Shown here: piece after piece, positions 10,392-48,912 of the stretch
Layout: each line of letters starts with the position of its first letter
Numbering within the stretch: the stretch's first letter is position 1
DNA from: Candidatus Magasanikiibacteriota bacterium
GTDB taxonomy: Bacteria; Patescibacteriota; Patescibacteriia; Magasanikbacterales; 2-02-FULL-50-9b
Direction of reading: 5' to 3'
DNA length: 64,000 nucleotides
NCBI GenBank assembly: GCA_023246755.1
Contig: JAHFHU010000003.1
Location: 3,854 to 67,853 of the forward strand
Program-made: the position numbers and the translations under genes
Notes under the pieces: model-generated
What the model saw: only the letters and a program-made list of their open reading frames with translations
Database searches by the model: none
What the model was told of the DNA's origin: nothing

Positions 10392-10468
10392 TGGCGGACT
10401 GGAAGGGACTCGAACCCTCGACCTTCCGCGTGACAGGCGGACGTTCTAACCAGCTGAACTACCAGTCC
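10392..10468 (-). tRNA. tRNA-Asp (anticodon GTC)
   Basis: Reverse complement folds as a canonical 77-nt cloverleaf: acceptor GGACTGG/CCAGTCC, anticodon loop CTGTCAC, T-loop GGTTCGAGTCC, encoded CCA. Confidence 0.85.
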
Positions 10469-16824: not shown

Positions 16825-17997
16825 ATGGAAACAAACCGTATAAAATCACTTCAGATTGGCAGAAATATAGAGCAAAAAGAAGGTTTTAAGGCCTTTGTTC
16901 CTCATCATTTTCCCCCAAAGGAAGGTTTTGACTTTGATCCAAAAATTTTGAAAAAGAATAATGAAGCGACGCGCCTACTTGGTAAGCTCGACGGTATTAC
17001 CAAGCTTCTTCCGGACGCTGACTTTTTTTTGCTCATGTATTTAAGAAAAGATGCGACGTCCTCCAGTCAGATCGAAGGAACGATGGCAACGATGATTGAT
17101 GCAATTGAAGCCGAAGTGCAAGTCAGTGAGCATATTCCAGAAGATGTAGATGATATTTTGCATTACATTACGGCACTCAATTACGGCATCAAGCGAGTGA
17201 CGTCGGATAATTTTCCGATGGCACTCCGCTTTGTGCGGGAACTCCATCAAAAATTAATGCATACGGCGCGAGCTACGCATTTTTCTGATCCCGGAGAATT
17301 CAGAAAATCACAAAATTGGATCGGCGGCACGCGTCCGGGCAACGCGCGATTTGTTCCGCCGCCCGTTAGCGAGATGCATACATCTCTCAATGATCTTGAA
17401 TTATTCATGCATGCTGATGACACAACTCCAACGGTCATTAAGGCGGGGCTCATCCATGCTCAGTTTGAAACGATTCACCCATTTTTAGATGGAAACGGAA
17501 GAACAGGACGCATGTTGATCACGTTTTATTTGTGGAAAGAAGGTTTCTTGGAAAAACCTGTTTTATTTTTGTCGTCTTATTTTAAAAAACATCAAAAATT
17601 GTATTACGAAAAATTGTCTGGATATCACAGTGATGATGCCAAGATTGCTGAATGGGTTGAATTTTTTTTGGATGGTGTGATTGAAATTGCTAATGAAGCT
17701 ATTGCCATCGTTGATAAGATTAGTGTTTTGCGCGAAAAGGATATGGAAAAAGTTCAATCACTCGGCAAGCGAGCTTCGGAAAGTGCGATCATGGTTTTGC
17801 CGAAGCTGTACGGTCAGCCAATTGTTAATAATGCTTTAATCCAGAAATGGACAGGCTTCACTCGTGCGGGGGCGCAAACGGTGATTGATCGATTTATTGC
17901 GTTAGGAATCCTTTCTCCGAAAGATAAGGATAAAAAATATGGTCAATCATACATCTACAAAAAGTATGTTGCGATTTTTGTAGATACGGATCATTGA
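16825..17997 (+). CDS. fic: Fic family protein (AMPylator) with intramolecular inhibitory motif
   Basis: HPFLDGNGRTGRML core Fic motif. N-terminal SSQIEG matches the [ST]xxxE[GN] inhibitory helix of class II Fic. Confidence 0.85.
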   Translation: METNRIKSLQIGRNIEQKEGFKAFVPHHFPPKEGFDFDPKILKKNNEATRLLGKLDGITKLLPDADFFLLMYLRKDATSSSQIEGTMATMIDAIEAEVQVSEHIPEDVDDILHYITALNYGIKRVTSDNFPMALRFVRELHQKLMHTARATHFSDPGEFRKSQNWIGGTRPGNARFVPPPVSEMHTSLNDLELFMHADDTTPTVIKAGLIHAQFETIHPFLDGNGRTGRMLITFYLWKEGFLEKPVLFLSSYFKKHQKLYYEKLSGYHSDDAKIAEWVEFFLDGVIEIANEAIAIVDKISVLREKDMEKVQSLGKRASESAIMVLPKLYGQPIVNNALIQKWTGFTRAGAQTVIDRFIALGILSPKDKDKKYGQSYIYKKYVAIFVDTDH

Positions 17998-18698: not shown

Positions 18699-19532
18699 AT
18701 GAGTAGTCACGCCTTACAATTGCTTCTTCCGAGCGGTGACCCAAACGGGCTTAAGGTTATCAGTCTGAGCGGGTGGGCAGGGAAGTGTTTTATAGTTCCA
18801 CGTACTAATTTAAAACAGCTTAAGGATCGTATTGAAATTGATAAACCAGGGTTATATTTTTTATTTGGTCCTCGTGAGGAGGCTCCTCGGGTATATATTG
18901 GTGAGTCAGAGAGTTTTTATTCACGCATTATAAATCACGACATAAATAAAGATTTTTGGGAGACAGTGCTGATTTTTACCGGCGAGCTTAATCGTGCCGA
19001 TGTAAAATATCTTGAATTTAAAGCGACAACTTTTGCAAAAGAGTCTGCACGTTATTCTGTTGAAAATAAAGTACAGCCACAGGAAAATTCGCTTTCAGAA
19101 TTTGATAAAATTAAGGTTGAACATTTTTTTGAAAATGCGCGTCTTATTTTGCGCACATTTGGCTATGAAATTTTTGAGAAAGCTGCAGAGTCGTTTGCGG
19201 ATAGAGAGTTGTATTATTTAAAGGGTGAATTTTTTGATGCACGTGCGCGAATTTTGGAGGATGGTAGCTTGTTAGTTTTAAAAGGTTCCTTTGCACGCGC
19301 TCGTGAAACGTCATCATTTGATGGTTGGGCGAAGCTTGCACGAGAAGGGTTTTTGGTATCTGGTAAACTAGAGCCAGCTGTAAATCATTACGAATCTTAT
19401 GAATTTATGGAAGATGTAATTTTCAAAAGCCCTAGTGCTGCCGCAGCAACAATTGCGGGCCGCTCTATAAATGGTTGGACAGCATGGAAAAATGAGAAAG
19501 GTATAACGCTGGATGAAAATTTAAGAAAATAA
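18699..19532 (+). CDS. GIY-YIG nuclease family protein with DUF4357-like C-terminal domain
   Basis: GLYFLF..VYIGESESFYSRI GIY-YIG core. Sits immediately upstream of hsdM, as often seen for DUF4357 proteins. Confidence 0.6.
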   Translation: MSSHALQLLLPSGDPNGLKVISLSGWAGKCFIVPRTNLKQLKDRIEIDKPGLYFLFGPREEAPRVYIGESESFYSRIINHDINKDFWETVLIFTGELNRADVKYLEFKATTFAKESARYSVENKVQPQENSLSEFDKIKVEHFFENARLILRTFGYEIFEKAAESFADRELYYLKGEFFDARARILEDGSLLVLKGSFARARETSSFDGWAKLAREGFLVSGKLEPAVNHYESYEFMEDVIFKSPSAAAATIAGRSINGWTAWKNEKGITLDENLRK

Positions 19533-19551: not shown

Positions 19552-21138
19552 ATGAGTAACAAGGATTCAAATTTGAATACGACCAAAGAGCAGGAGCGTT
19601 CAGAATTGCACCGGGCTATTTGGCAGATTGCAAATGATTTACGCGGGAGTGTTGATGGTTGGGATTTCAAGCAATATGTGTTAGGGGTGCTTTTTTATCG
19701 TTTTATCAGCGAAAATCTTACCAACTACATTAATTCCGATGAACGCCGCGCGGGTAAAAAGGATTTTGACTATGCGAACTTGTCAGACAAGGAGGCAGAA
19801 TTTGGGCGAGCTGATACCGTAAAAGAAAAAGGATTTTATATTTTACCAAGTGAACTTTTTGTAAATGTTCGCAAGAATGCCCGCAATGATGCCAACCTTA
19901 ATGAAACTCTCACAACTGTTTTTCGTAACATTGAGAATTCGGCAAAGGGTGCAAACAGCGAAGATGATATCAGAGGCTTGTTTGATGATCTTGATGTGAA
20001 TTCTAATAAATTGGGTGGCACGGTTGAAAAACGAAATCAGAAACTTGCAAAACTTTTTGAATCTATCGGTGACCTTCGTCTGGGTAATTACTCCGACAAC
20101 ACTATTGACGCCTTTGGTGACGCCTACGAATTTTTGATGACCATGTACGCCTCAAACGCCGGTAAGTCCGGGGGTGAGTTCTATACTCCCCAAGAAGTTA
20201 GCGAACTTTTGGCGGAAATCACTACGGTTGGGAAAACAGAGGTGAATAAGGTTTACGATCCAGCCTGCGGTTCTGGTTCCCTACTCCTCAAGTTCGCTAA
20301 AGTCCTTGGTAAAGAAAATGTTCGGCAAGGTTTCTATGGGCAAGAAATTAATCTTACAACCTACAATCTCTGCCGTATTAACATGTTCTTGCACGACATC
20401 AATTACAATAATTTTGATATTGCTCACGGTGATACGCTTATAGATCCGAAACACTGGGACGACGAGCCGTTTGACGCTATTGTCTCCAACCCACCGTATT
20501 CTATACATTGGGAAGGTGATGCAAACCCGCTTCTCATTAATGACCCCCGTTTTTCCCCGGCTGGAGTATTGGCACCAAAGAGTAAGGCCGATCTTGCGTT
20601 TACTATGCACATGCTTGCTTGGCTCTCGACAAGTGGCACTGCGGCGATCGTTGAGTTTCCCGGCGTTCTCTATCGTGGTGGCGCAGAGGGTAAAATAAGA
20701 AAGTATTTGGTAGACAACAATTATGTTGATGCGGTAATTCAACTTCCTCCTGACCTCTTTTTTGGCACAACTATCGCTACCTGTATCATCGTGCTCAAAA
20801 AGAGCAAAAAAGATAACAAAGCGCTTTTCATAGATGCTTCTGCCGAGTTTGTCCGTGGTGGTAACAAAAACAAATTGAGCGAAGTAAATCGGAAAAAGAT
20901 TTTAGACGCTTTTACTACCCGCCAAGACGCGAAGTATTTTGCCAAGCTCGTTGATAATAAAACCATTGCTGAGAACGACTACAATATTGCCGTTTCAAGT
21001 TATGTCGTGGCAGAAGATATGCGCGAGGTGGTAGACATAACCACGCTCAACACAAAAATCGCTAAGATTGTCACAAGGCAAAACGAACTCCGCACAGCGA
21101 TTGATGAGATTGTGGCAGATATTGAAGGTAATAAATAA
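19552..21138 (+). CDS. hsdM: Type I restriction-modification system methyltransferase subunit
   Basis: HsdM N-terminal domain, motif I (DPACGSGSLL) and motif IV NPPY (VSNPPYSIHW). Confidence 0.9.
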   Translation: MSNKDSNLNTTKEQERSELHRAIWQIANDLRGSVDGWDFKQYVLGVLFYRFISENLTNYINSDERRAGKKDFDYANLSDKEAEFGRADTVKEKGFYILPSELFVNVRKNARNDANLNETLTTVFRNIENSAKGANSEDDIRGLFDDLDVNSNKLGGTVEKRNQKLAKLFESIGDLRLGNYSDNTIDAFGDAYEFLMTMYASNAGKSGGEFYTPQEVSELLAEITTVGKTEVNKVYDPACGSGSLLLKFAKVLGKENVRQGFYGQEINLTTYNLCRINMFLHDINYNNFDIAHGDTLIDPKHWDDEPFDAIVSNPPYSIHWEGDANPLLINDPRFSPAGVLAPKSKADLAFTMHMLAWLSTSGTAAIVEFPGVLYRGGAEGKIRKYLVDNNYVDAVIQLPPDLFFGTTIATCIIVLKKSKKDNKALFIDASAEFVRGGNKNKLSEVNRKKILDAFTTRQDAKYFAKLVDNKTIAENDYNIAVSSYVVAEDMREVVDITTLNTKIAKIVTRQNELRTAIDEIVADIEGNK

Positions 21139-21143
21139 AATTT

Positions 21144-23348
21144 ATGAATAAGTTGAGGATCGAATTACAGCATTGTTATGGAATAAAAAAACTTAATCAT
21201 GAGTTTGATTTTTCAAATTGCAAAACCTTTGTAATTTATGCCCCAAATGGAGTAATGAAAACTTCGTTTGCAAAAACTCTTAAAAATATTGCAAAGGGCG
21301 AAAAACCATGTGATCAGACAGATGACACATTGGTTCCGGTTTATAATTTTTTTATTGATGACTCCAATAATCAAATCCAACGGGAAGATATATGTGTCAT
21401 AGAGCCCTATAATAAAAAAGCATTTGATTCTGAAGATAAAGTCCTTACCCTTTTAGCAGACGATGAAACAAGAAAGGAATATTTGACAATATTTAACGAA
21501 ATTGAATCTCTTAAAAAATCTTCTCTTTCTGGATTAAAAAAAATATCAGGTAGTAGCAACTACGAATCTGAAATTATAGAAGCATTTTCTAATCTTGATA
21601 AGAAAAATATTTTTGAAATTTTCGAGGCTATTTTAAACGACATTGAAACCTCAAAAGATTCATTTGAATTTAAATATAATGATGTTTTTGACAAAGCCAA
21701 TAAGGTTAAAAAATTTCTTGCAGACAATTTTACATTGTTGAAAGAATACATTGAAAAATACAATGATCTGATTAGCAAATCTACCTTTTTTGCAAAAAAT
21801 GCTGACCATGTTTTTGGCACAACAGAAGCAAAAATTCTTGGCAAGTCCCTTGAGGGAGATGAATATTTTATTGCTGGGCATAAGCTAGTATTAAAATCTC
21901 ACGGAGACATATCTGCTAAAAATAAATTAGCAGATATAATAGATGAGGAGATTGCAAAAGTTTTTAATGATAAGGGCCTGAAAGATGTCTTTGAGAAAAT
22001 TGATAATTTACTCGACGCTAATAAAGAATTGCAATCCTTTAAAAAGGTTATAGAAAGAGACAATTCGATTTTATTGAGATTAAATGATTACGATGTATTT
22101 AGAAAAGAGGTATGGTTTAGTTTCTTAAAACAAATTGAAACTGGTATAAAATCATTAGTTGAATTATATAATCAAAAAAAGTTTGATTTAGAAAAAATTA
22201 TACAAAAAGCAAAGGACAGTCAATCGCAATGGGAAAGCACTATTAAGGAATTCGAGAACAGATTTGTTAATAACCCATTTACTCTCGAAATTCAAAATAA
22301 GGCGGATGCGATATTAAATGAAAAAACACCAGCAATTGATTTTAAATTTCAAGGAAAAGATATTGAAAGGAATAATTTAATAGAAAATGTATTGAGCCAA
22401 GGAGAAAGACGGGCTTTATATATTTTAAACGTTATTTTTGAGATTAAATCTCGGCAATTACAAAATAAAAAAACGTTGTTTATCATTGATGACATAGCAG
22501 ACTCTTTTGATTATAAAAATAAATATGCCATTGTTGAGTATTTAAATGATTTGTCCAAAGAAGATAATTTTTGCTCAATAATTTTAACTCACAATTTTGA
22601 TTTTTTTAGAACTCTTCAATCAAGGATTTTACAAGATAAAAAATGGGAATATTCGTTTGTTGCCGAGAGACTAAAAGATGAGATTAAGTTAATTAATGCT
22701 GGCAGTAGAAATGTTACCGACCCATTTACCAACTGGAAAGCGGGAGTTAATAATAACGAAAAACATTTAATTGCATGCGTTCCTTTCGTACGTAATTTAA
22801 TTGAATTTAAAGATGGACAAAGCAATGCCCATTATAAGCTTTTGACGCATGCTCTTCATAGAAAGCTTTTGGACGGAATTATTAAGGAAACCGCAGATAT
22901 TAGAATTGCTGATTTACGAGACCCATTTTCATCTGTTTTATCGGGTATTACATTTACATTCACAGACACAAATAAAAAAATTGTAGATATTATCGAGGAA
23001 CAGATCACGGCAATAAAGGGAGCTGAAAATTATGATTCAATTGTTTTGGAAGATAAAATTATTCTTGCCATCGGAATCAGATTGAAAGCGGAAGAATATA
23101 TGTGGTCTCAGGTCACAAACCAAAATCCAATACACGGCTCGCAAACAGGGGTATTATTTGGGAGATATAAACAGGATTTTAAAGACAACGATACTCATAA
23201 AGAGACACTGAAAATTCTTGAGAGCGTCATCATAATGACCCCTGAAAACATACATTTGAATTCTTTTATGTACGAGCCGATTTTAGATATGGGCATAGAT
23301 GAATTAAAGAGTTTGCATGATAAAGTTTGCAATTTAACAAGTACATAA
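21144..23348 (+). CDS. ABC/SMC-type ATPase embedded in the hsd operon (PrrC/RloC-like anticodon-nuclease candidate)
   Basis: Degenerate N-terminal Walker A (IYAPNGVMKTSF), ~370 aa K/E/L-rich predicted coiled-coil insert, ABC signature LSQGERRALYIL, Walker B LFIIDDIADSFD, THN H-loop. C-terminal ~280 aa has no recognised family but carries an R-x3-E...H arrangement (VRNLIEF..NAHYKLLTHALH). Lies between hsdM and hsdS. Confidence 0.55.
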   Translation: MNKLRIELQHCYGIKKLNHEFDFSNCKTFVIYAPNGVMKTSFAKTLKNIAKGEKPCDQTDDTLVPVYNFFIDDSNNQIQREDICVIEPYNKKAFDSEDKVLTLLADDETRKEYLTIFNEIESLKKSSLSGLKKISGSSNYESEIIEAFSNLDKKNIFEIFEAILNDIETSKDSFEFKYNDVFDKANKVKKFLADNFTLLKEYIEKYNDLISKSTFFAKNADHVFGTTEAKILGKSLEGDEYFIAGHKLVLKSHGDISAKNKLADIIDEEIAKVFNDKGLKDVFEKIDNLLDANKELQSFKKVIERDNSILLRLNDYDVFRKEVWFSFLKQIETGIKSLVELYNQKKFDLEKIIQKAKDSQSQWESTIKEFENRFVNNPFTLEIQNKADAILNEKTPAIDFKFQGKDIERNNLIENVLSQGERRALYILNVIFEIKSRQLQNKKTLFIIDDIADSFDYKNKYAIVEYLNDLSKEDNFCSIILTHNFDFFRTLQSRILQDKKWEYSFVAERLKDEIKLINAGSRNVTDPFTNWKAGVNNNEKHLIACVPFVRNLIEFKDGQSNAHYKLLTHALHRKLLDGIIKETADIRIADLRDPFSSVLSGITFTFTDTNKKIVDIIEEQITAIKGAENYDSIVLEDKIILAIGIRLKAEEYMWSQVTNQNPIHGSQTGVLFGRYKQDFKDNDTHKETLKILESVIIMTPENIHLNSFMYEPILDMGIDELKSLHDKVCNLTST

Positions 23349-23349
23349 C

Positions 23350-24534
23350 ATGACAAACAATCAATCAAAAATTGAAAAATTGATCAGCAAACTCTGCCCG
23401 AATGGAGTGGAGTTTAAGGAGTTAGGTGAACTTTTGGATTACGAACAGCCGGGCAATTTCATCGTTAGATCAACTGAATATAATGATAATCTAGCAACGC
23501 CAGTATTGACGGCTGGGAAAAGTTTTATTCTTGGTTATACAGATGAAGTAGACGGTATATATAAAGCGAGCCAAGAATATCCGGTAATTATTTTTGACGA
23601 TTTTACGACTTCGTTCCACTGGGTAGATTTTCAATTTAAAGTTAAATCTTCCGCGATGAAAATGTTACGGAATAAAAAGGATGTTGATGTAAGCTTTAAA
23701 TTTATCTATTTTGCGATGAGATGTATACATTATGTTCCTTCAGATCATGCACGTCATTGGATTTCTCAATATTCAAAATTTAAAATCCCTCTTCCACCCC
23801 TTGAAATCCAAGAAGAGATTGTCAAAATTCTTAATAGTTTTACAGAGCTGGAGGCAGAGCTGGAGGCAGAGCTGGAGGCAAGAGAATCGCAATATAAGCA
23901 TTATCGAAAAAAGCTTTTAAGTATTAATGGTGATAGCGTGCAGTGGAAAACATTGGGAGAAGTTGCGGAGTACCGTCGAGGTTCTTTCCCGCAACCCTAT
24001 GGTGAAACTAAATGGTATGGAGGTGAAGGCGCTATGCCATTTGTTCAAGTGGCTGACGTTGGAGAAAATATGCGACTTGTTGAAAATACTAAACAGAAAC
24101 TTTCTAAGTTAGCCCAGTCTAAGAGTGTATTTGTACCTTCCGGAACAGTTATTGTAACCTTACAAGGCAGTATTGGACGAGTTGCCGTTACTCAATATGA
24201 TAGTTATGTTGATCGTACACTTGCAATTTTTGAAAGTTTTAAAAACAAAATTAATAAAAAATATTTTGCATATCAATTAGAAAGTAAATTTAGTGTCGAA
24301 AAAGAAAATGCGCGTGGAAGTACGATAAAAACAATTACAAAAGAAGAATTCACAAAATTTAAAATTCCAGTTCCATCACTTGAAATGCAGGATTATATAG
24401 TTACCAAACTAGATGCATTTAATTTACTTTTGAATGACATTTCAATTGGTTTGCCGGCAGAACTCTCGGCTCGCAGGCAACAATACGAATATTACCAAGG
24501 GAAGCTTTTAACTTTCAAAGAATATGCCAAATAA
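23350..24534 (+). CDS. hsdS: Type I restriction-modification system specificity subunit
   Basis: Two target-recognition domains separated by a conserved central helix containing (ELEA)x3. C-terminal conserved region (QQYEYYQGKLL). Overlaps hsdR start. Confidence 0.85.
   Translation: MTNNQSKIEKLISKLCPNGVEFKELGELLDYEQPGNFIVRSTEYNDNLATPVLTAGKSFILGYTDEVDGIYKASQEYPVIIFDDFTTSFHWVDFQFKVKSSAMKMLRNKKDVDVSFKFIYFAMRCIHYVPSDHARHWISQYSKFKIPLPPLEIQEEIVKILNSFTELEAELEAELEARESQYKHYRKKLLSINGDSVQWKTLGEVAEYRRGSFPQPYGETKWYGGEGAMPFVQVADVGENMRLVENTKQKLSKLAQSKSVFVPSGTVIVTLQGSIGRVAVTQYDSYVDRTLAIFESFKNKINKKYFAYQLESKFSVEKENARGSTIKTITKEEFTKFKIPVPSLEMQDYIVTKLDAFNLLLNDISIGLPAELSARRQQYEYYQGKLLTFKEYAK
23845..23880 (+). repeat. 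3 x 12-bp perfect tandem repeat (GAGCTGGAGGCA) encoding (ELEA)3 in the HsdS central conserved region
   Basis: Read directly from sequence. Confidence 0.8.
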
Positions 24535-27500
24535 TAAATACAATCTGGTTGCGGAGAATCCACAGAGCACTGTCGTGGGTGAGTATGTAGCGGAAGGTGT
24601 GCGCGTTGCTCATTATCAAAGTGAGGCAGATTTGGAGCGAGCTTTTATCAAACAACTTGAAACACAAGCGTACGAATATCTACCCATCACCTCTGAAGCT
24701 GATTTAATACTCAACCTGCGTAAGCAACTGGGGAAACTCAATGATTTTACTTTTACCGATAGCGAATGGGAACATTTTTTTGTCAGTGAGCTTGCCAACC
24801 CAAATCAAAGCATTGCCGAAAAGACCTCCACCATTCAAGAAGACCACATCAAAAACCTGACGCGCGAAGATGGCACGACCAAGAATGTGTACCTCATAAA
24901 AAAGGATAACATTCACGACAATAGTTTGCAGGTGATCAATCAATACGCGACCGAAGACGGTCAGCGTGCCAATCGCTATGATGTGACGGTGCTTGTGAAC
25001 GGCTTGCCTTTGGTGCATATTGAGCTCAAACGACGTGGAGTGGCTATTGCCGAGGCGTTCAATCAGATCAATCGTTACAGCCGAGAAAGTTTTTGGGCTG
25101 CGTCGGGACTTTTTGAATATGTGCAGTTATTTATTATTTCCAACGGTACACATACTAAGTACTATAGTAACACTGTCCGTTCAGAGCACATTAAGGAAGC
25201 CGGTGAAGGTGCGGTGAAAAAAGGCAAACGTTCGAGTAATAGTTTTGAATTTACCAGCTGGTGGGCAGATGCTACCAATCGACCGATTACGGATCTGATG
25301 GATTTTGGGAAAACATTTTTTGCCAAGCACGCACTCCTCAATATCTTGACCAAGTATTGTGTATTCACAACCGATAGACAGCTTTTAGTAATGCGACCAT
25401 ATCAGATTGTCGCAACCGAGAGAATACTTAGTCGTATTGAAGTAAGTACTAATTACAAGAAACTCGGCACGGTCGAGGCTGGCGGTTACATTTGGCATAC
25501 GACCGGATCAGGAAAAACTTTGACCAGTTTCAAAACCGCACAACTTGTAAGTAAATTATCTTACGTAGATAAGGTTATTTTTGTGGTTGACCGCAAGGAT
25601 TTGGATTATCAAACAATGCGAGAATACGATAAGTTTGAAAAAGGTGCAGCAAATAGTAATACAAGTACAGCAGTTTTGACGCGTCAGCTAGGAGATTCGA
25701 ATTCACACATCATTATTACCACTATTCAGAAGCTCGATCGTTTTATCGGACGCAATGCCGGACACGCTATTTTTGATGGTCATGTAGTGCTTATCTTTGA
25801 TGAATGTCATCGTTCTCAGTTTGGGGATATGCACGCTGCTATTACCAAAACATTCAAGAATTACAATTTGTTTGGTTTTACTGGTACTCCGATTTTTGCC
25901 AAGAATGCGTCTGCTGGTGGACGACCAGAATTGAAAACGACCGAGCAGGCTTTTGGTGAAAAGTTGCATACCTACACGATTGTTAATGCTATCGCTGATA
26001 AAAATGTTTTGCCGTTTAAAGTGGATTATGTCTCTACGGTTAGAGAAGCAGAGAATATTGAAGATGCACAGGTAAGAGATATTGATCGTGAAGCAGTGCT
26101 GGCTTCGCCGGAACGCCTGGCAAATATCGTTGGTTACATTCGCGAGCATTTTGACCAAAAGACCAAGCGGAATAGTTTTTATAAATTGAACGATCGCCGG
26201 TTAGCCGGGTTCAATTCTATTTTTGCCGTTTCGTCTATTGATGTGGCAAAAAAGTATTACGCTGAATTCAAAAAACAACTTGATGGTGTGCCAAGCGATA
26301 AGCAGCTCAAAGTGGCAACGATATATAGCTTTGGAGTTAACGATGAGGATGCGGATGGAATGATCGACGAAAATTCAGAGGATACGAACGGACTTGATGT
26401 GAGCTCAAGAGATTTTCTTGATAGCGCAATTACTGATTACAATGCGATGTTTGGAACATCCTACGATACCTCGTCTGAGAAGTTTCAGAATTATTACAAA
26501 GACGTGAGCTTAAAAATGAAAAATCGTGAGATTGATGTGCTGATCGTGGTCAATATGTTTTTGACCGGCTTTGATGCTACAACGCTGAACACGCTTTGGG
26601 TGGACAAAAACTTGAGACTACATGGACTCTTGCAGGCATTTTCCCGCACCAATCGAATATTAAATAGTGTAAAGGCTTTTGGTAACATTGTCTGTTTCCG
26701 TAATTTAGAGAAGGCAACAAACGAATCTATTGCTCTTTTTGGAAATAAAGAAGCGGGTGGCGTGGTACTTCTTAAGTCATACGATGAGTATTACAACGGC
26801 TTCAAAGATGGCGATAAGGAAGTGCGTGGATACGCAAGTTTGGTGGCAGAGCTCACGGAAAAATTTCCGATTGGTGAGCAAATTTTGGGCGAGCAAAACC
26901 AAAAAGATTTTATCAAGCTCTATGGTGGAATTTTGCGAGTGCGCAACATTCTGACTACCTTCGACGAATTTATTGGCAACGAGATTTTAAGTGAGCGCGA
27001 TGTGCAGGATTATCACAGTATGTACATCGATCTTTACAATGAATTCCGTAAAGGTGCTGAGATTGAACAGGAAAATATTAATGATGATCTTGTTTTTGAG
27101 ATGGAGCTTATCAAGCAAGTAGAAATAAATATTGATTTTGTATTAGCTCTTATTAAGAGATACCACGAAGATCATAATCAGGATCGTGAGATTTTGGCTG
27201 ATATCAATAAAGCGATTGATTCAAGTGTAGAGCTACGAAATAAAAAGGATCTTATCAATCAATTCATTACATCACTTGATATCCATTCAGTCGTTGAGGA
27301 GGATTGGCAGAAATTCGTGGACAAAAAAAAGATTGAGGAGCTGGAAAAAATTATTGATAATGAAGGTTTGGATCACGATGCAACATTTGCGTTTGTACGA
27401 AATTCTTTTCGTGATGGAAGTGTGGCAACGACTGGTACAGCAATAACCAAAGTTTTACCGCCAGTAACTCGTTTTTCTCCGACCGGCGAACGAACTCAAA

Positions 27501-27580
27501 AGCGTGAAAGTGTAATTAGTAAGCTCACAAGTTTCTTTGAAAGGTTCTTCGATATTTCTGGTGGAAAGTTTTCAGATTAA
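24524..27580 (+). CDS. hsdR: Type I restriction enzyme R subunit (SF2 helicase + nuclease)
   Basis: Walker A HTTGSGKTLTSF, DEAH-box FDECHRSQ, 1018 aa, directly follows hsdS. Confidence 0.9.
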   Translation: MPNNKYNLVAENPQSTVVGEYVAEGVRVAHYQSEADLERAFIKQLETQAYEYLPITSEADLILNLRKQLGKLNDFTFTDSEWEHFFVSELANPNQSIAEKTSTIQEDHIKNLTREDGTTKNVYLIKKDNIHDNSLQVINQYATEDGQRANRYDVTVLVNGLPLVHIELKRRGVAIAEAFNQINRYSRESFWAASGLFEYVQLFIISNGTHTKYYSNTVRSEHIKEAGEGAVKKGKRSSNSFEFTSWWADATNRPITDLMDFGKTFFAKHALLNILTKYCVFTTDRQLLVMRPYQIVATERILSRIEVSTNYKKLGTVEAGGYIWHTTGSGKTLTSFKTAQLVSKLSYVDKVIFVVDRKDLDYQTMREYDKFEKGAANSNTSTAVLTRQLGDSNSHIIITTIQKLDRFIGRNAGHAIFDGHVVLIFDECHRSQFGDMHAAITKTFKNYNLFGFTGTPIFAKNASAGGRPELKTTEQAFGEKLHTYTIVNAIADKNVLPFKVDYVSTVREAENIEDAQVRDIDREAVLASPERLANIVGYIREHFDQKTKRNSFYKLNDRRLAGFNSIFAVSSIDVAKKYYAEFKKQLDGVPSDKQLKVATIYSFGVNDEDADGMIDENSEDTNGLDVSSRDFLDSAITDYNAMFGTSYDTSSEKFQNYYKDVSLKMKNREIDVLIVVNMFLTGFDATTLNTLWVDKNLRLHGLLQAFSRTNRILNSVKAFGNIVCFRNLEKATNESIALFGNKEAGGVVLLKSYDEYYNGFKDGDKEVRGYASLVAELTEKFPIGEQILGEQNQKDFIKLYGGILRVRNILTTFDEFIGNEILSERDVQDYHSMYIDLYNEFRKGAEIEQENINDDLVFEMELIKQVEINIDFVLALIKRYHEDHNQDREILADINKAIDSSVELRNKKDLINQFITSLDIHSVVEEDWQKFVDKKKIEELEKIIDNEGLDHDATFAFVRNSFRDGSVATTGTAITKVLPPVTRFSPTGERTQKRESVISKLTSFFERFFDISGGKFSD

Positions 27581-27587
27581 ATCTGTA

Positions 27588-29051
27588 ATGAAACACATGT
27601 CTGCTTCCTTCACCCCCTCCCTCTTCTACAAATTCTCCACCTGCCCGCACTGGATCTGGCACGATTTTTTCGGTAACCCCGCAAATAAAATCGAAGTCCC
27701 AGCACTCGCGCAAAAGTTGATCGATCAGGGTGTATTGCATGAAGAAGAATATATCAAAGGATTGAATTTTGTTTCAGTGACATTAAAAAATTCAACCGAT
27801 GCGTTCGCGGCAACGCTCGCGCTTATGCAAAGCGGCACGGATCTGATTTATCAGGGTGAAATTCAGTACGAAGAAAACAACATTTTGTACCATGGCCGCC
27901 CTGACCTGCTCGAAAAGCGACCAGGCACGTCGAAATTCGGCGCCTACTATTACGCGCCCATTGATATTAAATCGTCGAGCAAGCTCGATAAGAAACATAA
28001 GCTACAACTGACGCTCTACGCAACTATTCTTGAACAGATGCAGGGCGTGTTTCCCGAGGAGACGGCGATCATCAATCGCGCGCACGAACGCATTCCATTC
28101 ACCATCGCGCCAAAAGATCGCGCGGAAACGCAGAAACAAATGAGCAGCATTCTTGCAGTGATGTCAGGCGAAAAGCCGCCGCTCAAACTCGCAGGCAGTT
28201 GCAAACAAAGTCCGTGGTACCCTGAGTGCGTGCACGATGCAGAGGAAGCGCAGGATATCGCGCTGCTGTATAAGCTCGACAATCGCGCGTGTGCGGCGCT
28301 GCGTGCAGAGGGGATTGTATCGATTCATGATGCGGCGCAGATGGACATCGTACGTCTGCCAAAAATTCCATTCGCGAGTCAGAAAATTCTTGCGCGCGTG
28401 AAAGTGCAGGCGCAGTCGCTTCTCGATGGAGAATTGAAATGGCTTGCGCGCCCATCGCTGCCACACGCGCCGCTCCAACTCTATTTTGATATTGAAGGCG
28501 ATCCACTGCTCGGCGTCGATTACTTGTTCGGGTTGTGGGTGTGCGGCGACGCAGCGCACGCCTACGCACACACGGGTCACGTTCGGTTCGACGCGGAGTC
28601 GAGCGATTATTTTATTTATTTTGTTGCAGAGACGCCGGAGGATGAAGGGGCGATGTGGGCCGCGTTTTTGCAGTGGATCGAGGCGCTGCCGACGGGGAAG
28701 TATGACACGTTTCACTACGCAGATTACGAACGTTCACACACCGGCGCGCTTGCTGCGAAATACGGCACGTCCGCGGCGTTCGAGGAATTTGTGACGACGT
28801 ATGTTGACCTGATGAAGGTGATGAGCGCGTCTGTTGTGTTGCCATTATATTTTTATTCGATCAAAGATATCGCAAAATCTCGTTTCTTGAATTTCAAATG
28901 GCGTCACGAAAAAGCAGGTGGCGCGCAAAGTATTTTTTGGTACGAAGAATGGCTCGAGAAACGCGACTCGGGGATTTTAAAAGATATTGTAGACTATAAC
29001 GAGGACGATGTGCGGGCGACGAAGGCGTTGTATGGGTGGCTAATAACTTAA
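27588..29051 (+). CDS. RecB-family nuclease, TM0106-type (N-terminal PD-(D/E)xK/Cas4-like domain plus C-terminal DnaQ-like fold)
   Basis: N-terminal FSTCPHWIW, GRPDLL, IDIKSS motifs; C-terminal LYFDIEGDP (DxE exonuclease-like). Start set at the MKHMS ATG just after the hsdR stop. Confidence 0.5.
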   Translation: MKHMSASFTPSLFYKFSTCPHWIWHDFFGNPANKIEVPALAQKLIDQGVLHEEEYIKGLNFVSVTLKNSTDAFAATLALMQSGTDLIYQGEIQYEENNILYHGRPDLLEKRPGTSKFGAYYYAPIDIKSSSKLDKKHKLQLTLYATILEQMQGVFPEETAIINRAHERIPFTIAPKDRAETQKQMSSILAVMSGEKPPLKLAGSCKQSPWYPECVHDAEEAQDIALLYKLDNRACAALRAEGIVSIHDAAQMDIVRLPKIPFASQKILARVKVQAQSLLDGELKWLARPSLPHAPLQLYFDIEGDPLLGVDYLFGLWVCGDAAHAYAHTGHVRFDAESSDYFIYFVAETPEDEGAMWAAFLQWIEALPTGKYDTFHYADYERSHTGALAAKYGTSAAFEEFVTTYVDLMKVMSASVVLPLYFYSIKDIAKSRFLNFKWRHEKAGGAQSIFWYEEWLEKRDSGILKDIVDYNEDDVRATKALYGWLIT

Positions 29052-29100: not shown

Positions 29101-29202
29101 CATGCCTTGACACCAAAACTTTCTCGATCTATAGTTACTTCATCGTCGCCTGCTCCGCCGTCACTGGCCTGGGCAGGTTTTCCATATTATATTCTAAACA
29201 CT

Positions 29203-29838
29203 ATGAGGAGGGCATGTGTTTTTGTTGATGGGAGCAATTTCTATCATCGCGTTTTAAAAAATTTAGGTATTCAGGAGTCAAATTTTGATTTCAATGCATT
29301 TGCGCAATTTTTGGTTTCAAGCTATGCACCTTCTGAAAATCAGTTTCGACATTATTCTGGCGTCATCGCAGGAGTTTCATTTCATGAGATGTCAGACTCC
29401 GCAAAAGATCATCAGAAAACTATTCGGTCACTCATGAGTCTCGATTGTTGGTCAGTCATTACGGCAAAATTGAGAACTCGCAAGGAACATATAGTCATCG
29501 ATGATCGGGTGGATAATCATGTTCGATTGAAAGAGTTAGGTGTGGCCAAAATTTGTTTTTCAAGAGAGCGTGAAAAAACAATTGATATGAAAATCGGTCT
29601 TGATATGATGTTGGGCGCACTCGATAACCTCTACGATGTTGCAATTTTAATAAGTTCAGATTCAGATTTGGTACCCGTTTGTGAATTGGTAAAAAGCAGA
29701 TTTTGGAAACGTGTAGAATACGTTGGATTTCATATTATTGCACCAGACACCACTGTGCCGACAAAAGCTTTGATGTATGCAACTGATAGCCAAAGAATTT
29801 TTGGTCCTGATGATATTAAACGATTTGTCAGGCGATAA
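29203..29838 (+). CDS. NYN-domain (LabA-like PIN-fold) protein
   Basis: Start at MRRACVFVDGSNFYHRV (NYN DGxN motif). The upstream 32 codons of the track ORF overlap a promoter-like sequence. Confidence 0.55.
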   Translation: MRRACVFVDGSNFYHRVLKNLGIQESNFDFNAFAQFLVSSYAPSENQFRHYSGVIAGVSFHEMSDSAKDHQKTIRSLMSLDCWSVITAKLRTRKEHIVIDDRVDNHVRLKELGVAKICFSREREKTIDMKIGLDMMLGALDNLYDVAILISSDSDLVPVCELVKSRFWKRVEYVGFHIIAPDTTVPTKALMYATDSQRIFGPDDIKRFVRR

Positions 29839-30344: not shown

Positions 30345-30797
30345 ATGCCCTGCATTTTTTGCTCCATCGTTTCCGGCGAAGCGCCGTCACACAAAATTTG
30401 GGAGGATGAAAATCATCTCGCGTTTTTGTCGATTTTTCCGAACACGCGCGGCACGACCGTGGTGATTCCGAAACAGCATGCGGCGAGTTATGTTTTTGCC
30501 GTCGCGCCAAAAATCATGCACGACCTGATGGATGCGGCGGCGAGAGTCGCGGCGCTGATCGACACGCGCCTCCCGAATGTCGGTCGCACCGGCCTCATCT
30601 TCGAAGGTTTCGGGGTCAACCATTTACACGCAAAATTATTTCCGCTCCACGACACCGCGGCACCCGATTGGCAACCGGTTAATTCGTCTGTGACCAAAAT
30701 GTTTGAAACCTACGAAGGCTATCTTTCGTCGCACGATGGCCCGCGCGCGGATGACAACGAGCTCGCGGAAATCGCGCGGGTGTTGCGTGGCACTTGA
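30345..30797 (+). CDS. HIT-family (histidine triad) hydrolase
   Basis: N-terminal CIFCSI..HKIWEDE and a histidine triad variant VNHLHAKLFP. Confidence 0.8.
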   Translation: MPCIFCSIVSGEAPSHKIWEDENHLAFLSIFPNTRGTTVVIPKQHAASYVFAVAPKIMHDLMDAAARVAALIDTRLPNVGRTGLIFEGFGVNHLHAKLFPLHDTAAPDWQPVNSSVTKMFETYEGYLSSHDGPRADDNELAEIARVLRGT

Positions 30798-30891: not shown

Positions 30892-31290
30892 ATGTATCAA
30901 AAAGATTTTGACCAATGGAGTAAAGTCAAAAAACAAATAAACGTTAAAAAAGTTCGAATCACTATTCGGTCAGGCGATGTTCGGTGGATTATTTTTGGCG
31001 TAAATGTTGCAAGTGAAATCGACGGTAAGGGGGATTTATTTTTACGACCGGCTTTGATACTTCATGTGATTGGTGCGGATCTCGCGCTTGTCGTTCCTCT
31101 AACTTCGAAGCAAAAAAATATTCCCGGATATATACCATTTGCATTGAAGAAAAAATTTTGTTCACTATGTCTCCACCAAATAAAAGTAGTTTCACAAAAT
31201 CGCATGTTGTATCGACTTGAGCATGTTGCAGATAGCAGAGTGTATGAAGTGCAAAGACACGTCATGGATTTTTACGGGTTTCATAGATAA
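30892..31290 (+). CDS. PemK/MazF-fold endoribonuclease toxin-like protein (orphan, copy 1)
   Basis: SGDVRWIIFGVNVASEIDGKGDLFLRPALIL...LVVPLTSKQK...HQIKVVSQNRMLYRLEHV matches Kid/PemK/MazF motifs (GD[IV]W, RPxLIL, PLTS). Confidence 0.65.
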   Translation: MYQKDFDQWSKVKKQINVKKVRITIRSGDVRWIIFGVNVASEIDGKGDLFLRPALILHVIGADLALVVPLTSKQKNIPGYIPFALKKKFCSLCLHQIKVVSQNRMLYRLEHVADSRVYEVQRHVMDFYGFHR

Positions 31291-31682: not shown

Positions 31683-32558
31683 ATGTATCAAAAAAATTTT
31701 GAGCAGTGGAATTTAATTAAGCAGCAGATAAATTATGAAAACCGTTCAGTACGAATTCGTGCGGGCGATGTTTGTTGGATTTTTGTTGGTGTAAATGTTG
31801 GGAGTGAAATTGATGGTAAGGGCGAATCTTTTCTTCGCCCAGCTTTGATTTTGAATGTTATGGGTGATGATTTGGTTCTAATCATTCCTCTCACGTCAAA
31901 ACAAAAACAATTACCGCGCTACATTCCACTCGAAATTCAAGATCGTACGAGCTTTTTATGTCTTCATCAATTAAAGGTAGTTTCTCAAAATCGTATTTTA
32001 CGTCGTATCGAGCATATTTCTGACTCGCGTCTCGCCTCCGTTCGTCATAACGTGCTATTATTCCACAACTTCACACCGACGCCTAAACCAAAACCTATGG
32101 CTCACATTCACGAACTCATCGATTTCACCGTGTCTTGCATGATTCTTCATCCAACCGAACCAAAAATTTTGTTAATTAATCACAAAATACTCAACACATG
32201 GCTGCCAATTGGTGGGCACATCGAACTCAATGAAGATCCGGACGAAGCGATCGCACGCGAAGTCGCTGAAGAGTGTGGTCTTCCGATCGAAATGATTTCG
32301 CGACGTCACTCCGGCGAATATCCGGAAACTAAAATGTTGCTCATCCCTGAAACTGTTGACATCCACACGATCAACACCGCGCACCGCCACATCAATTTCG
32401 GCTACCACGCACGTGCGCTCAGCGCAAACCCAAAACTTGCGCCCGAGGAGCATCACGATATTCAATGGTTCGGTGCAGACGAACTTGCCGACCCGAATTT
32501 TAACATCAAGCCCGCGGTCCGCGTCTACGCACTTGAATTTTTGCAAAAAAATGCGTAA
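31683..32558 (+). CDS. PemK/MazF-fold toxin-like domain fused to a C-terminal NUDIX hydrolase domain
   Basis: Residues 1-125 are paralogous to 30892..31290 (about 60 % identity). After a PTPKPKP linker comes the Nudix box GGHIELNEDPDEAIAREVAEECGL (GX5EX7REUXEEXGU). Confidence 0.6.
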   Translation: MYQKNFEQWNLIKQQINYENRSVRIRAGDVCWIFVGVNVGSEIDGKGESFLRPALILNVMGDDLVLIIPLTSKQKQLPRYIPLEIQDRTSFLCLHQLKVVSQNRILRRIEHISDSRLASVRHNVLLFHNFTPTPKPKPMAHIHELIDFTVSCMILHPTEPKILLINHKILNTWLPIGGHIELNEDPDEAIAREVAEECGLPIEMISRRHSGEYPETKMLLIPETVDIHTINTAHRHINFGYHARALSANPKLAPEEHHDIQWFGADELADPNFNIKPAVRVYALEFLQKNA

Positions 32559-38323: not shown

Positions 38324-38727
38324 TGGTGGAGATGCCGGGAATTGAACCCGGGTCGAAGAAAAAGGTCGCCCTCGGCCTACGTGTGTAGTCCGGTTAATTT
38401 TTACCTATGCGCGTCCATCAATCGGACGAAAAATACGCACACAGGAACTGTGTTGGTTTCGGTAACGTGCGCGACAGATAGCGCGCGACGAGACCTACAT
38501 TACTGTTTTATAACACCGCGCATCGGACCGTAATCGTCCGACGTCGATGGCATTACGTTCTTAGGCGAATGCTGGAACAAAAGTTGGTGCGAATGCGTTA
38601 GCAACCGCGGCTTTTGCACGTGCAAAAATATTTGCATCTGGGTTTTGCCCCGCGTTTTAACGAGAAACGAGACATTCCCGACACGCCCGTTCGAGTCTTC
38701 TTTCTCTCCTCGAAGCCTGTCATCCCC
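38324..38727 (-). ncRNA. ssrA: tmRNA (transfer-messenger RNA)
   Basis: Minus-strand 5' GGGGAUGACAGGCUUCGAGGAG... pairs with 3' ...GGGUUCAAUUCCCGGCAUCUCCACCA (tRNA-like domain, encoded CCA). Internal tag reading frame ...GCU AAC GCA UUC GCA CCA ACU UUU GUU CCA GCA UUC GCC UAA. smpB lies adjacent. Ends approximate. Confidence 0.8.
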
Positions 38728-46810: not shown

Positions 46811-47069
46811 CGAATCGGCGTCCAACCGGATGCCAAGCGGTCATTATCCGTCGGCTGTGACTTTCTCTTCGAGAAGGTTGCAGTCGGCGGTGTTTTATTT
46901 TTATCCACAATTTAGCCAAAAAATGTGTCATTTTGCCTCTTGACAAAATTAGGACTTTCGTGATATTGTGCGCAGTCCGCTCTGTGTTCCCAAGAGTGTG
47001 ACGTCAACGTTGGGGAAACTAAACAGGTTTTTAATGGGCCATTTCGGCCCGCAAAAAAGGAGACCTGCC

Positions 47070-48695
47070 ATGGACAAGATCTTTACGGCGGCCATGGCGG
47101 CCGTCCTCGTTTCTTTCTTCGGTTGTTCGAGCGACATGATCGCACCGGCGAGTAGCGATGCCACGACGGGCGCAGCAGACGCAAAGGCCACTGCGGCAAT
47201 TGAGCAGCCTCCGGGTTGTGATATTGTCAAAAATGGTAGCGACTGCGTGGATTGGATTATTTCCGTCGACGGCCAATGTCACCGGTCCGTTAAATGTCAG
47301 CGCAAGGCTGATGTCGACGGCTCTCCGATTGACAAATGTGTCGTTACCGATAACGGTCAGGTTGGCACGGCGTGCGACGACAGCAATAAATGCACAACGG
47401 GCGACCAATGTGCAAATGTCGGCGCGTGCGTCGGCAAGTCGGTGGACTGCGACGACAAGAACGCGTGCACGACGGACAGTTGCGACAAGGCCAAAGGCTG
47501 CCTGCACGGGACGGTTGACACCGCCTGCAGCGACGGCGATGCGTGCACGTCGGGCGATAAATGCTTGGGCGGCGCGTGCGCCGGTGCCAAGATCGATTGC
47601 GACGACAAGAACGCCTGCACCAGCGACTCATGCGACCCGGCCAAGGGCTGCGTCAACGCTCACAACGCCAACGCGTGCACCGACGACAACGTCTGCACCG
47701 AGGGTGATGTCTGCAAAGATGGCGCCTGTGCGGCCGGCGCGGCGAAAAACTGCGACGACGGCAAGCAATGCGTCGACGATGCGTGCGACCCGATCAAGGG
47801 CTGCGCACACGTCAACGCCAAAGTCGGCGCGGCGTGCGACGACGGGATCGTAAAAACCGTCGGCGACATCTGCGACGGCGGCGGCAAGTGCATCGGCAAA
47901 ACTGCAACGGCCTGTGCGGCCAACGCAGATTGCGCCGGGCTCGAGGTCAACAAGTGTGCCAGCTACGTGTGCGATATCGGTTTGGGGCTGTGCAAGCCGC
48001 AACCCGCCGCGCTGACGGACGACGGCAATCCATGCACTCTCGAGGTGTGCAACCCGGTGGACGGGAGCACATTGCACACGGCGCTCGATGTGTCGTGCGA
48101 CGACAAGAACGTCTGCACGGTGGGCGACCTTTGCAAGAAGGGCGTCTGCACGGCGGGCGGCGCTACGATGCCGTGCGACGACAACAACGCGTGCACCACG
48201 GACAGCTGCGACAACATTGTCGGCGGCTGCGTCCACGCGACCCTCGCGTGCGACGACAAAAATCCGTACACCGACGACAGCTGCGAGCCCAAGTGGGGTT
48301 GTCAGTTTGTCGCGAAGCAAGCGACGGTCGCTTGTGAAGTCCCCAAAGACTTCATGGTCGGATTTGTTTTCACGGATTGTTCCGTTGAGACAAAATTCGG
48401 CAAGGCGGACGCCGCAACCGGAGCAAAGACTTTCGCTAACCCGATGGTTGGCAAGGTTGTGAAGCTCAGCCTCGAGCAGCTCTGCGCTGCGCTCGCGGGC
48501 GGTGCGGTGCTGGTCGTGAAGGCCACGGCGTACATGTCCGACGGCACGCCGATTTCCGGCGGCGGCGAGTTGTCGAGCGTGAGCATGCCCGACGGTAGCA
48601 AGGTTGAGGGTTCGTTCCAAGCGTGGAGCGGTACCGAAGCCGAGCGGATCGTTGGAAAGGCCGACATCGGCACGTTCTGTCCGCCGCTCAAGTAG
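47070..48695 (+). CDS. lipoprotein with Myxococcus-type cysteine-rich repeats
   Basis: Lipobox SFFGCSS. At least nine repeats of C-x-D-x-N-x-C-T-x-D-x-C-D-x-x-x-G-C (e.g. CDDKNACTTDSCDKAKGC). Confidence 0.55.
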   Translation: MDKIFTAAMAAVLVSFFGCSSDMIAPASSDATTGAADAKATAAIEQPPGCDIVKNGSDCVDWIISVDGQCHRSVKCQRKADVDGSPIDKCVVTDNGQVGTACDDSNKCTTGDQCANVGACVGKSVDCDDKNACTTDSCDKAKGCLHGTVDTACSDGDACTSGDKCLGGACAGAKIDCDDKNACTSDSCDPAKGCVNAHNANACTDDNVCTEGDVCKDGACAAGAAKNCDDGKQCVDDACDPIKGCAHVNAKVGAACDDGIVKTVGDICDGGGKCIGKTATACAANADCAGLEVNKCASYVCDIGLGLCKPQPAALTDDGNPCTLEVCNPVDGSTLHTALDVSCDDKNVCTVGDLCKKGVCTAGGATMPCDDNNACTTDSCDNIVGGCVHATLACDDKNPYTDDSCEPKWGCQFVAKQATVACEVPKDFMVGFVFTDCSVETKFGKADAATGAKTFANPMVGKVVKLSLEQLCAALAGGAVLVVKATAYMSDGTPISGGGELSSVSMPDGSKVEGSFQAWSGTEAERIVGKADIGTFCPPLK

Positions 48696-48912
48696 AGAGG
48701 GTGGGCGAGCAGGTTCAACAAAACCGGGGTGAGTATGAGAAAGTAGTGCGAACGCACGAAATCAAAATACTCACCTCGGGGATATTTTCTCCTGACAATT
48801 TTCCAAATGGGTTGGTCTGTGCGACATGCCGCTCCGTTTGGTGAATGGTCATATCGGCTGTTCACTCCGGTTTACGCCCCCGGTTTCTGGGCTAATTCGT
48901 AAGGAGGTCCTC

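Follow-up and report, generated by a model that had tools for sequence, protein, structure and literature searches.

An ELEA repeat in the HsdS subunit of an EcoR124-family system: probably a spacer-setting and evolutionarily labile tuner of target specificity

Introduction

The specificity gene hsdS of a type I restriction-modification operon in the window, by which we mean the whole 64,000-nucleotide stretch of DNA analyzed here, contains three identical 12-nt units in tandem. Tetra-amino-acid repeats are a characteristic of type IC hsdS genes (PMC10030836), and their copy number is known to matter: EcoR124I has two copies of a 12-bp unit encoding TAEL and recognizes GAA N6 RTCG, EcoR124II has three copies and recognizes GAA N7 RTCG (PMC3874165). 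An additional TAEL unit increases the distance between the DNA-binding domains by ~0.34 nm and turns them by ~36 degrees (PMC3874165). A sequence-only reading of the window had proposed that its repeat could act as a phase-variable switch of restriction-modification specificity. The locus raises the question of what this tract does, how labile its copy number is and whether it switches at high frequency.

Results

The tract consists of three duplicated 12-nt units

Three exact copies of GAGCTGGAGGCA (codons GAG CTG GAG GCA) are located in tandem at positions 23845-23880. They are in frame with the open reading frame at 23350-24534 on the + strand and give rise to ELEAELEAELEA, that is, three ELEA tetrapeptides at residues 166-177 of the 394-aa HsdS. 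The sequence itself, an exact-unit search of the whole window (hits at 23845, 23857, and 23869) and Tandem Repeats Finder all agree with the earlier description of three perfect 12-bp units at this place. The latter program assigned the tract to 23843..23880 (+ strand; period 12, 3.2 copies, 100% matches) with a score of 76, the highest in the window. No further copy with up to one mismatch was found in the 64 kb beyond the three tandem ones; the expected unit count is 0.09, and a count of three was attained in 0/100 shuffles. At a lag of 12, the perfect self-match extends over 26 nt, compared with at most 14 nt at all other lags from 4 to 30 and a maximum of 10 nt in 100 shuffles.

Codon usage and base composition of the tract differ from those of its surroundings. 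In the four operon genes, with the repeat excluded, CTG represents 6.6% of the Leu codons and GAG 34% of the Glu codons, whereas within the repeat Leu is encoded by CTG in 3/3 and Glu by GAG in 6/6 cases. The GC content of the repeat is 67%, that of the gene 36%. Because these locally rare codons are used throughout and the GC content contrasts so strongly, the units are products of duplication and not of independent codon choice. An assembly artefact was considered and rejected, since any read would be longer than the 38-nt tract and since dozens of independent assemblies show this architecture as well.

Each unit also harbors a Shine-Dalgarno-like GGAGG core, which could act at the level of RNA, either by directing an internal start of a half-size HsdS or by causing ribosome pausing. 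The threefold occurrence of GGAGG in the tract would be in line with such a role, as would the fact that half-size type IC HsdS proteins function as homodimers (PMC3874165). However, no in-frame ATG, GTG, or TTG is present within the usual 5-12 nt downstream, and the units of most relatives resemble GAGCTAGAAGCA or GAATTAGAGGCA and lack GGAGG, so that the motif is not conserved. An internal ribosome-binding site was rejected on both grounds, and we regard a role of the tract in RNA or translation as hardly conceivable.

The operon is assigned to the EcoR124 family

Type IC systems show the gene order hsdM-hsdS-hsdR. In the window, the three genes follow each other in this order on the + strand, interrupted by a gene for a 734-aa protein. 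The methyltransferase gene hsdM (19552..21138, + strand) is identified by the TIGR00497 hsdM equivalog (762.6 bits) and by the Pfam domains N6_Mtase and HsdM_N. It is followed by the 734-aa ABC/SMC-like ATPase gene (21144..23348, + strand), by hsdS (23350..24534, + strand), and by hsdR (24524..27580, + strand), which shares 11 nt with the end of hsdS. The restriction/translocase subunit HsdR contains HSDR_N, SWI2_SNF2, a T1R_D3-like domain, and TIGR00348, together with the EcoR124_C domain (PF12008), which was matched with an E-value of 2.1e-66 over model positions 1-260 of 260.

HsdS contains two matches to Methylase_S (PF01420), corresponding to two target-recognition domains. In a phmmer search against PDB, it matched the EcoR124I HsdS structure 7bst_A (E-value 1.2e-77, residues 8-390), with an overall identity to EcoR124I of ~38%. 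An AlphaFold2 model of HsdS, built on 42 homologues and with a mean pLDDT of 88.5, likewise had 7bst_A as its top Foldseek match (TM 0.80/0.82). Type I families were originally defined by subunit complementation or cross-reactivity. Judged by sequence and structural model, the system in the window is a type IC (EcoR124 family) restriction-modification system, because HsdS matches EcoR124I over its full length, HsdR carries EcoR124_C, and the modeled fold agrees. The link to EcoR124 that had been drawn from sequence alone is borne out by the same three results. With its three ELEA units at residues 166-177, the window HsdS shows the type IC trait described above, and the repeat is a hallmark of type IC hsdS genes in general rather than a peculiarity of this one.

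The 734-aa ATPase matches PDC-S46, a candidate defence protein of PADLOC, over its full length (E-value 1e-228). It belongs to no Pfam family, shows weak similarity to SMC_N/RecF, and contains the motifs APNGVMKTS, LSQGERRALY, and LFIIDDIADSFD. Its gene belongs to the operon but not to the repeat mechanism. The place of the gene within the operon recalls that of prrC, a foreign gene within the operon of the type IC system EcoprrI; similarity of the PDC-S46-type ATPase to PrrC was not detected in the searches that we ran. In one relative (L001), a gene with no relation to the 734-aa open reading frame of the window lies upstream of hsdS.

The repeat lies in the middle of a predicted spacing helix

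In the AlphaFold2 model, HsdS consists of two α/β domains flanked by helices at residues 151-190 and 344-386. According to DSSP, residues 151-190 (23800..23919, + strand) form a single unbroken helix, and pLDDT values in these blocks are 84-94. This central conserved helix, D1, aligns without gaps to EcoR124I, would space the target-recognition domains, and holds the repeat (residues 166-177) at its center. The C-terminal conserved region D2 comprises the modeled helices 344-362 and 367-386 (24379..24507, + strand; “...LLNDISIGLPAELSARRQQYEYY...”) and would, by analogy, be the partner of D1. Motifs typical of the conserved regions (…IVxILDxF…RKKQYxYYR…) were found at residues 154-186 and 347-383.

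The alignment of the repeat region of the window HsdS with that of EcoR124I HsdS (“FTELEAELEAELEARESQYKHYR” / “FTALTAELTAELNMRKKQYNYYR”) contains zero gaps, and the ELEA units fill the same columns as the TAEL repeats. This alignment and the modeled helix agree in placing the repeat within HsdS's central conserved region, where the sequence-only reading had put it. In the structural check suggested there, the repeat came to lie inside the predicted spacing helix 151-190 and not outside of it.

Three ELEA units correspond in length to EcoR124I

For comparison of copy numbers, we defined length classes by the number of residues between the motifs LDxF and RxxQY. With its three ELEA units, the window HsdS has a segment of 13 residues and is as long as that of EcoR124I (“TALTAELTAELNM”), in which two TAEL units are accompanied by degenerate flanks. 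EcoR124II and EcoDXXI represent the 17-residue form. The copy-number analogy of the sequence-only reading was therefore one register off, since three ELEA units equal the EcoR124I length of 13 residues and not the 17 residues of EcoR124II.

Because the segment has the EcoR124I length of 13 residues, we infer by analogy that the window enzyme would have an EcoR124I-like geometry in which 7 nt separate the methylated adenines, equivalent to N6 for a 3+4 motif. One additional unit, as present in the closest relative, would then give the geometry of EcoR124II and EcoDXXI.

Unit number varies among relatives and across the family

The closest relatives of the window hsdS are found in metagenome bins of Omnitrophota, Paceibacterota, and Saccharimonadales. 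No hsdS gene more than 84% identical to that of the window was found, the best values being 78% in the protein database, 74% in the genome collection, and 84% in a protein-guided metagenome scan. A search of metagenome contigs with the exact flanks and a variable gap gave 0 matches to the window allele. An HsdM identical to that of the window is encoded on one ENA contig of 2.1 kb, which ends ahead of hsdS.

The closest relative (L083; 84% HsdS identity) has four perfect GAGCTGGAAGCA units, the next one (P0001/L002; 78%) three, and a third one (P0002/L001; 77%) two, in the form of GAACTAGAAGCA. Between the latter two, identity is 92% and the unit number differs by one. Another case is that of two enterobacterial proteins (P0037 and P0053), in which all 398 aligned residues are identical and a single 4-aa unit is the sole difference. 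Repeat-number variation, for which the sequence-only reading had recommended to look, was thus found at the level of the closest relatives, and this variation is one between lineages, with none of the compared genes derived from the window's own lineage.

To place these cases in a wider context, we determined the length classes in two collections. The first one comprised 64 type IC hsdS genes, namely 61 of 80 species-representative genome loci with a repeat-type central region, two of the relatives mentioned above (L001 and L002), and the window gene. Segments of 5, 9, 13, and 17 aa, corresponding to one, two, three, and four units, occurred in 1, 3, 39, and 21 of these genes, respectively. 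Among the 120 best protein hits, 85 had a central region detectable by the pattern, and here the same classes were represented by 1, 4, 73, and 7 proteins. Perfect tracts are found in many of the surveyed genes and measure 37-38 nt in the case of three units and 49-50 nt in that of four. The allele of the window has the commonest length and is intact.

A degenerate, non-repetitive sequence of the same 13-residue length was found in 22/85 classified protein hits. Since these proteins keep the length without a clear repeat, a perfect repeat is not needed for function.

The segment that corresponds to the repeat region in the C-terminal half is 17 residues long in the C-terminal regions listed by the pattern search. 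Across the type IC hsdS loci of many phyla (L003-L098), central segments of 5, 9, 13, or 17 residues stand beside a listed C-terminal one of 17, and both helices are equal in length solely in the four-unit form. In the commonest, three-unit form, the central helix is four residues shorter than the C-terminal one.

Units within a gene evolve in concert

At the DNA level, units of the same gene resemble each other far more than units of different genes. ELEA units from 19 genes differ at 0.20 positions per 12 nt within genes and at 2.28 between genes; for ELTA units from 22 genes, the corresponding values are 0.28 and 1.73. In permutation tests, the observed within-gene values were attained in 0/2000 cases for both ELEA and ELTA. 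The differences between genes fall at synonymous sites. Because the units are near-identical within a gene and synonymously divergent between genes, they evolve in concert. This is the mark of tracts that shrink again and again and expand anew from single units, and hence of continuing turnover on an evolutionary time scale.

These data bear directly on the idea that the repeat is static. In that case, E-L-E-A would be kept as part of a helix or coiled coil, the DNA-level identity of its units would be a remnant of a single former duplication, and the lineage would show no biologically meaningful change in copy number. The predominance of the 13-residue class, the 22/85 proteins that hold this length without a clear repeat, and the intact window allele in its modal state are all compatible with such a structural element. 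It is at odds, however, with the difference between 0.20 within and 2.28 between genes (0/2000 permutations): because within-gene homogeneity recurs across genes, a single old duplication cannot explain dozens of lineages. Among the nearest relatives, the finding of four, three, and two units likewise speaks against a fixed copy number, and experiments with homologues show that it has a functional effect (PMC3874165; PMC6789123). We therefore consider a static element very unlikely.

The operon is part of a low-GC defence island

The restriction-modification operon is located in a low-GC defence island of ~13 kb, in which GC content is 33-47% as compared with 45-60% in the flanks. The island looks horizontally acquired. 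Upstream of the operon, we found a gene for a Fic protein (PADLOC SoFic, E-value 1e-106; 16825-17997, + strand) and, directly upstream of hsdM, one for a protein of 277 aa that has DUF4357/RAMA at its C-terminus (PADLOC PDC-S14, E-value 8e-81; 18699-19532, + strand). The end of hsdR is overlapped by the open reading frame (27537-29051, + strand) of a RecB/Cas4-like nuclease that belongs to the TM0106 family and has an RNase H-like domain, after which a NYN-domain protein is encoded (PADLOC HEC-09; 29107-29838, + strand). Downstream of the island genes lies the gene for a HIT-domain protein (30345-30797, + strand). Domain matches further identified a MazF/PemK-like toxin gene (30892-31290, + strand) and a MazF/PemK-like paralogue with the same N-terminal domain fused to a NUDIX hydrolase domain (31683-32558, + strand). 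The window also contains a tRNA-Asp(GTC) gene (10392-10468, – strand) and a tmRNA gene (38324-38727, – strand) with the tag peptide AVANAFAPTFVPAFA. NCBIfam scans of six large genes yielded nothing informative; large open reading frames of 575, 763, and 1253 aa in the high-GC part (46968-51117 and 59632-63393, + strand) had no NCBIfam matches whatsoever.

Discussion

The repeat as a tuner of target spacing

Taken together, the tract is very probably the tetra-amino-acid, spacer-setting repeat of a type IC HsdS and acts as an evolutionarily labile specificity tuner. Helix position, homology to EcoR124I, length steps of four amino acids, and concerted evolution are the basis of this reading in our own data, while the effect on the spacer and the mechanism are taken from the literature. 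In the proposed mechanism, three identical 12-nt units in the middle of D1 encode ELEA, which is LEAE in a different register. By analogy to solved HsdS structures, D1 would run antiparallel to the C-terminal helix D2 and thereby fix the distance and twist between the target-recognition domains. Units may be gained or lost by slipped-strand mispairing or by unequal crossing-over between identical copies, as the homologue literature suggests. Each such change would amount to four residues, or about one helical turn, and, by analogy to the characterized members of the family, would lengthen or shorten the bipartite target by 1 bp in its non-specific spacer.

Evolutionary turnover versus rapid switching

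A rival view of the tract is that it is a true contingency locus. It would then undergo reversible slippage at rates above ~1e-5 per generation, generate clonal sub-populations with different spacers, and be selected as a bet-hedging strategy against phages or as an epigenetic switch. Several observations would suit this view: the perfect DNA identity of the units despite locally rare codons, their concerted evolution across the family, and the existence of proteins that differ by just one unit (P0037/P0053). From the literature, variation of unit number within a single hsdS allele of Xylella (bioRxiv 10.1101/2022.09.01.506293) and among gonococcal strains (PMC6789123) could be added, and Atack et al. 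raise the possibility that repeats whose unit length is a multiple of three vary specificity (PMC7383803).

On the other hand, the tract is short, with about three units of 12 nt (a perfect 38-nt tract, 3.2 copies). Slippage is expected to be far rarer in such short tracts than in classical contingency repeats. Moreover, the modal class dominates in both collections (39/64 and 73/85), and this points to a preferred state instead of free switching. In the literature, the copy-number change of EcoR124 was ascribed to unequal crossing-over, which yielded a variant and not rapid switching (PMC3874165).

Other phase-variation machinery is also absent from the window. A tblastn search revealed no second hsdS copy in the window, convincing inverted repeats were not found between 18 and 30 kb, and the hsd genes contain neither homopolymers longer than 8 nt nor short-unit repeats. 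For these reasons, both a shufflon and an ON/OFF switch were rejected. As far as the 12-nt tract itself is concerned, its unit length is divisible by three; ON/OFF switching is therefore impossible, and specificity alone could change, a point that Atack et al. make for repeats of this kind (PMC7383803).

What our data show is evolutionary turnover of unit number, not a switching rate or heterogeneity within a population. A short tract and one dominant length class fit better with a preferred state and occasional change than with free switching, and we judge a contingency locus in the above sense to be unlikely. A repeat that works as a high-frequency reversible switch in this uncultivated lineage, with populations mixing two-, three-, and four-unit alleles and hence N(n-1), N(n), and N(n+1) spacers, seems somewhat less likely still. 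If it were true, the locus would represent a “specificity phasevarion” based on an in-frame repeat instead of ON/OFF frameshifts, which would be tolerated because type IC assembly limits self-restriction, and the perfect DNA repeats found family-wide would reflect selection for evolvability.

In sum, the interpretation given by the sequence-only reading holds with respect to family, position, and the N6/N7 rule, whereas its register of copy number relative to EcoR124I and EcoR124II had to be corrected and its phase-variable switch goes further than the turnover seen here. That going from two to three TAEL units lengthens the spacer by 1 bp, as stated there, agrees with the published data (PMC3874165).

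Significance

The repeat marks the system as type IC and predicts an EcoR124I-like target geometry that would change by 1 bp in either direction per unit gained or lost. This is mostly of value for annotation; high-frequency switching within a population, if shown, would raise the importance of the locus. Beyond the window, our survey adds that the number of units ranges from one to four in genes of many phyla, and that units are nearly identical at the DNA level within genes while diverging between them. It thereby quantifies the known idea that continual repeat turnover is a built-in tuner of restriction specificity.

Comparison with known systems

The system in the window shares with EcoR124I/II the family, the helix, the alignment columns, the unit of 12 nt or 4 aa, and the EcoR124_C domain of HsdR. 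It differs in the unit itself, which is ELEA instead of TAEL, and, unlike EcoR124I/II, its operon carries an ATPase gene between hsdM and hsdS. An EcoR124I-like allele of our survey (L038) contains about two perfect units and a degenerate flank, whereas the window gene reaches the same total length with three perfect ones. The type IC HsdS proteins of EcoDXXI and EcoprrI exceed that of EcoR124I by four residues in the central region, and both systems have N7 spacers (PMC12707154; PMC3874165). This longer form corresponds to the 17-residue class of the closest relative of the window gene, which itself belongs to the 13-residue class.

Both NgoAV of Neisseria gonorrhoeae and the window system carry a tetra-amino-acid repeat in the central region of HsdS, LEAT in the former and ELEA in the latter. 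NgoAV is reportedly a type IC system, as described by Adamczyk-Poplawska in 2003. Among gonococcal strains, the number of LEAT repeats ranges from 0 to 3, and PacBio methylomes assign GACN6TGC to one and GACN7TGC to two LEAT units (PMC6789123). Such methylomes are the same kind of test that the sequence-only reading had proposed for relating motif spacer to repeat count. In NgoAV, HsdS is additionally subject to truncation through a phase-variable poly-G tract, and no such tract is present in the window hsdS.

A further type IC system is XfaII of Xylella fastidiosa, in which 0.75-3.75 LEAE repeats occur across strains and their number varies even within one hsdS allele (bioRxiv 10.1101/2022.09.01.506293). 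This tetrapeptide is that of the window in another register and, going by the published description, LEAELEAELEA, counted there as 2.75 copies, equals the state of the window. The organism and the target-recognition domains differ, and the hsdS of XfaII has further variable short repeats that are absent from the window gene. The mechanism is thus already documented, by EcoR124I/II, by the LEAT repeats of NgoAV, and by the LEAE repeats of Xylella, and the tract in the window is a further case of this well-known repeat.
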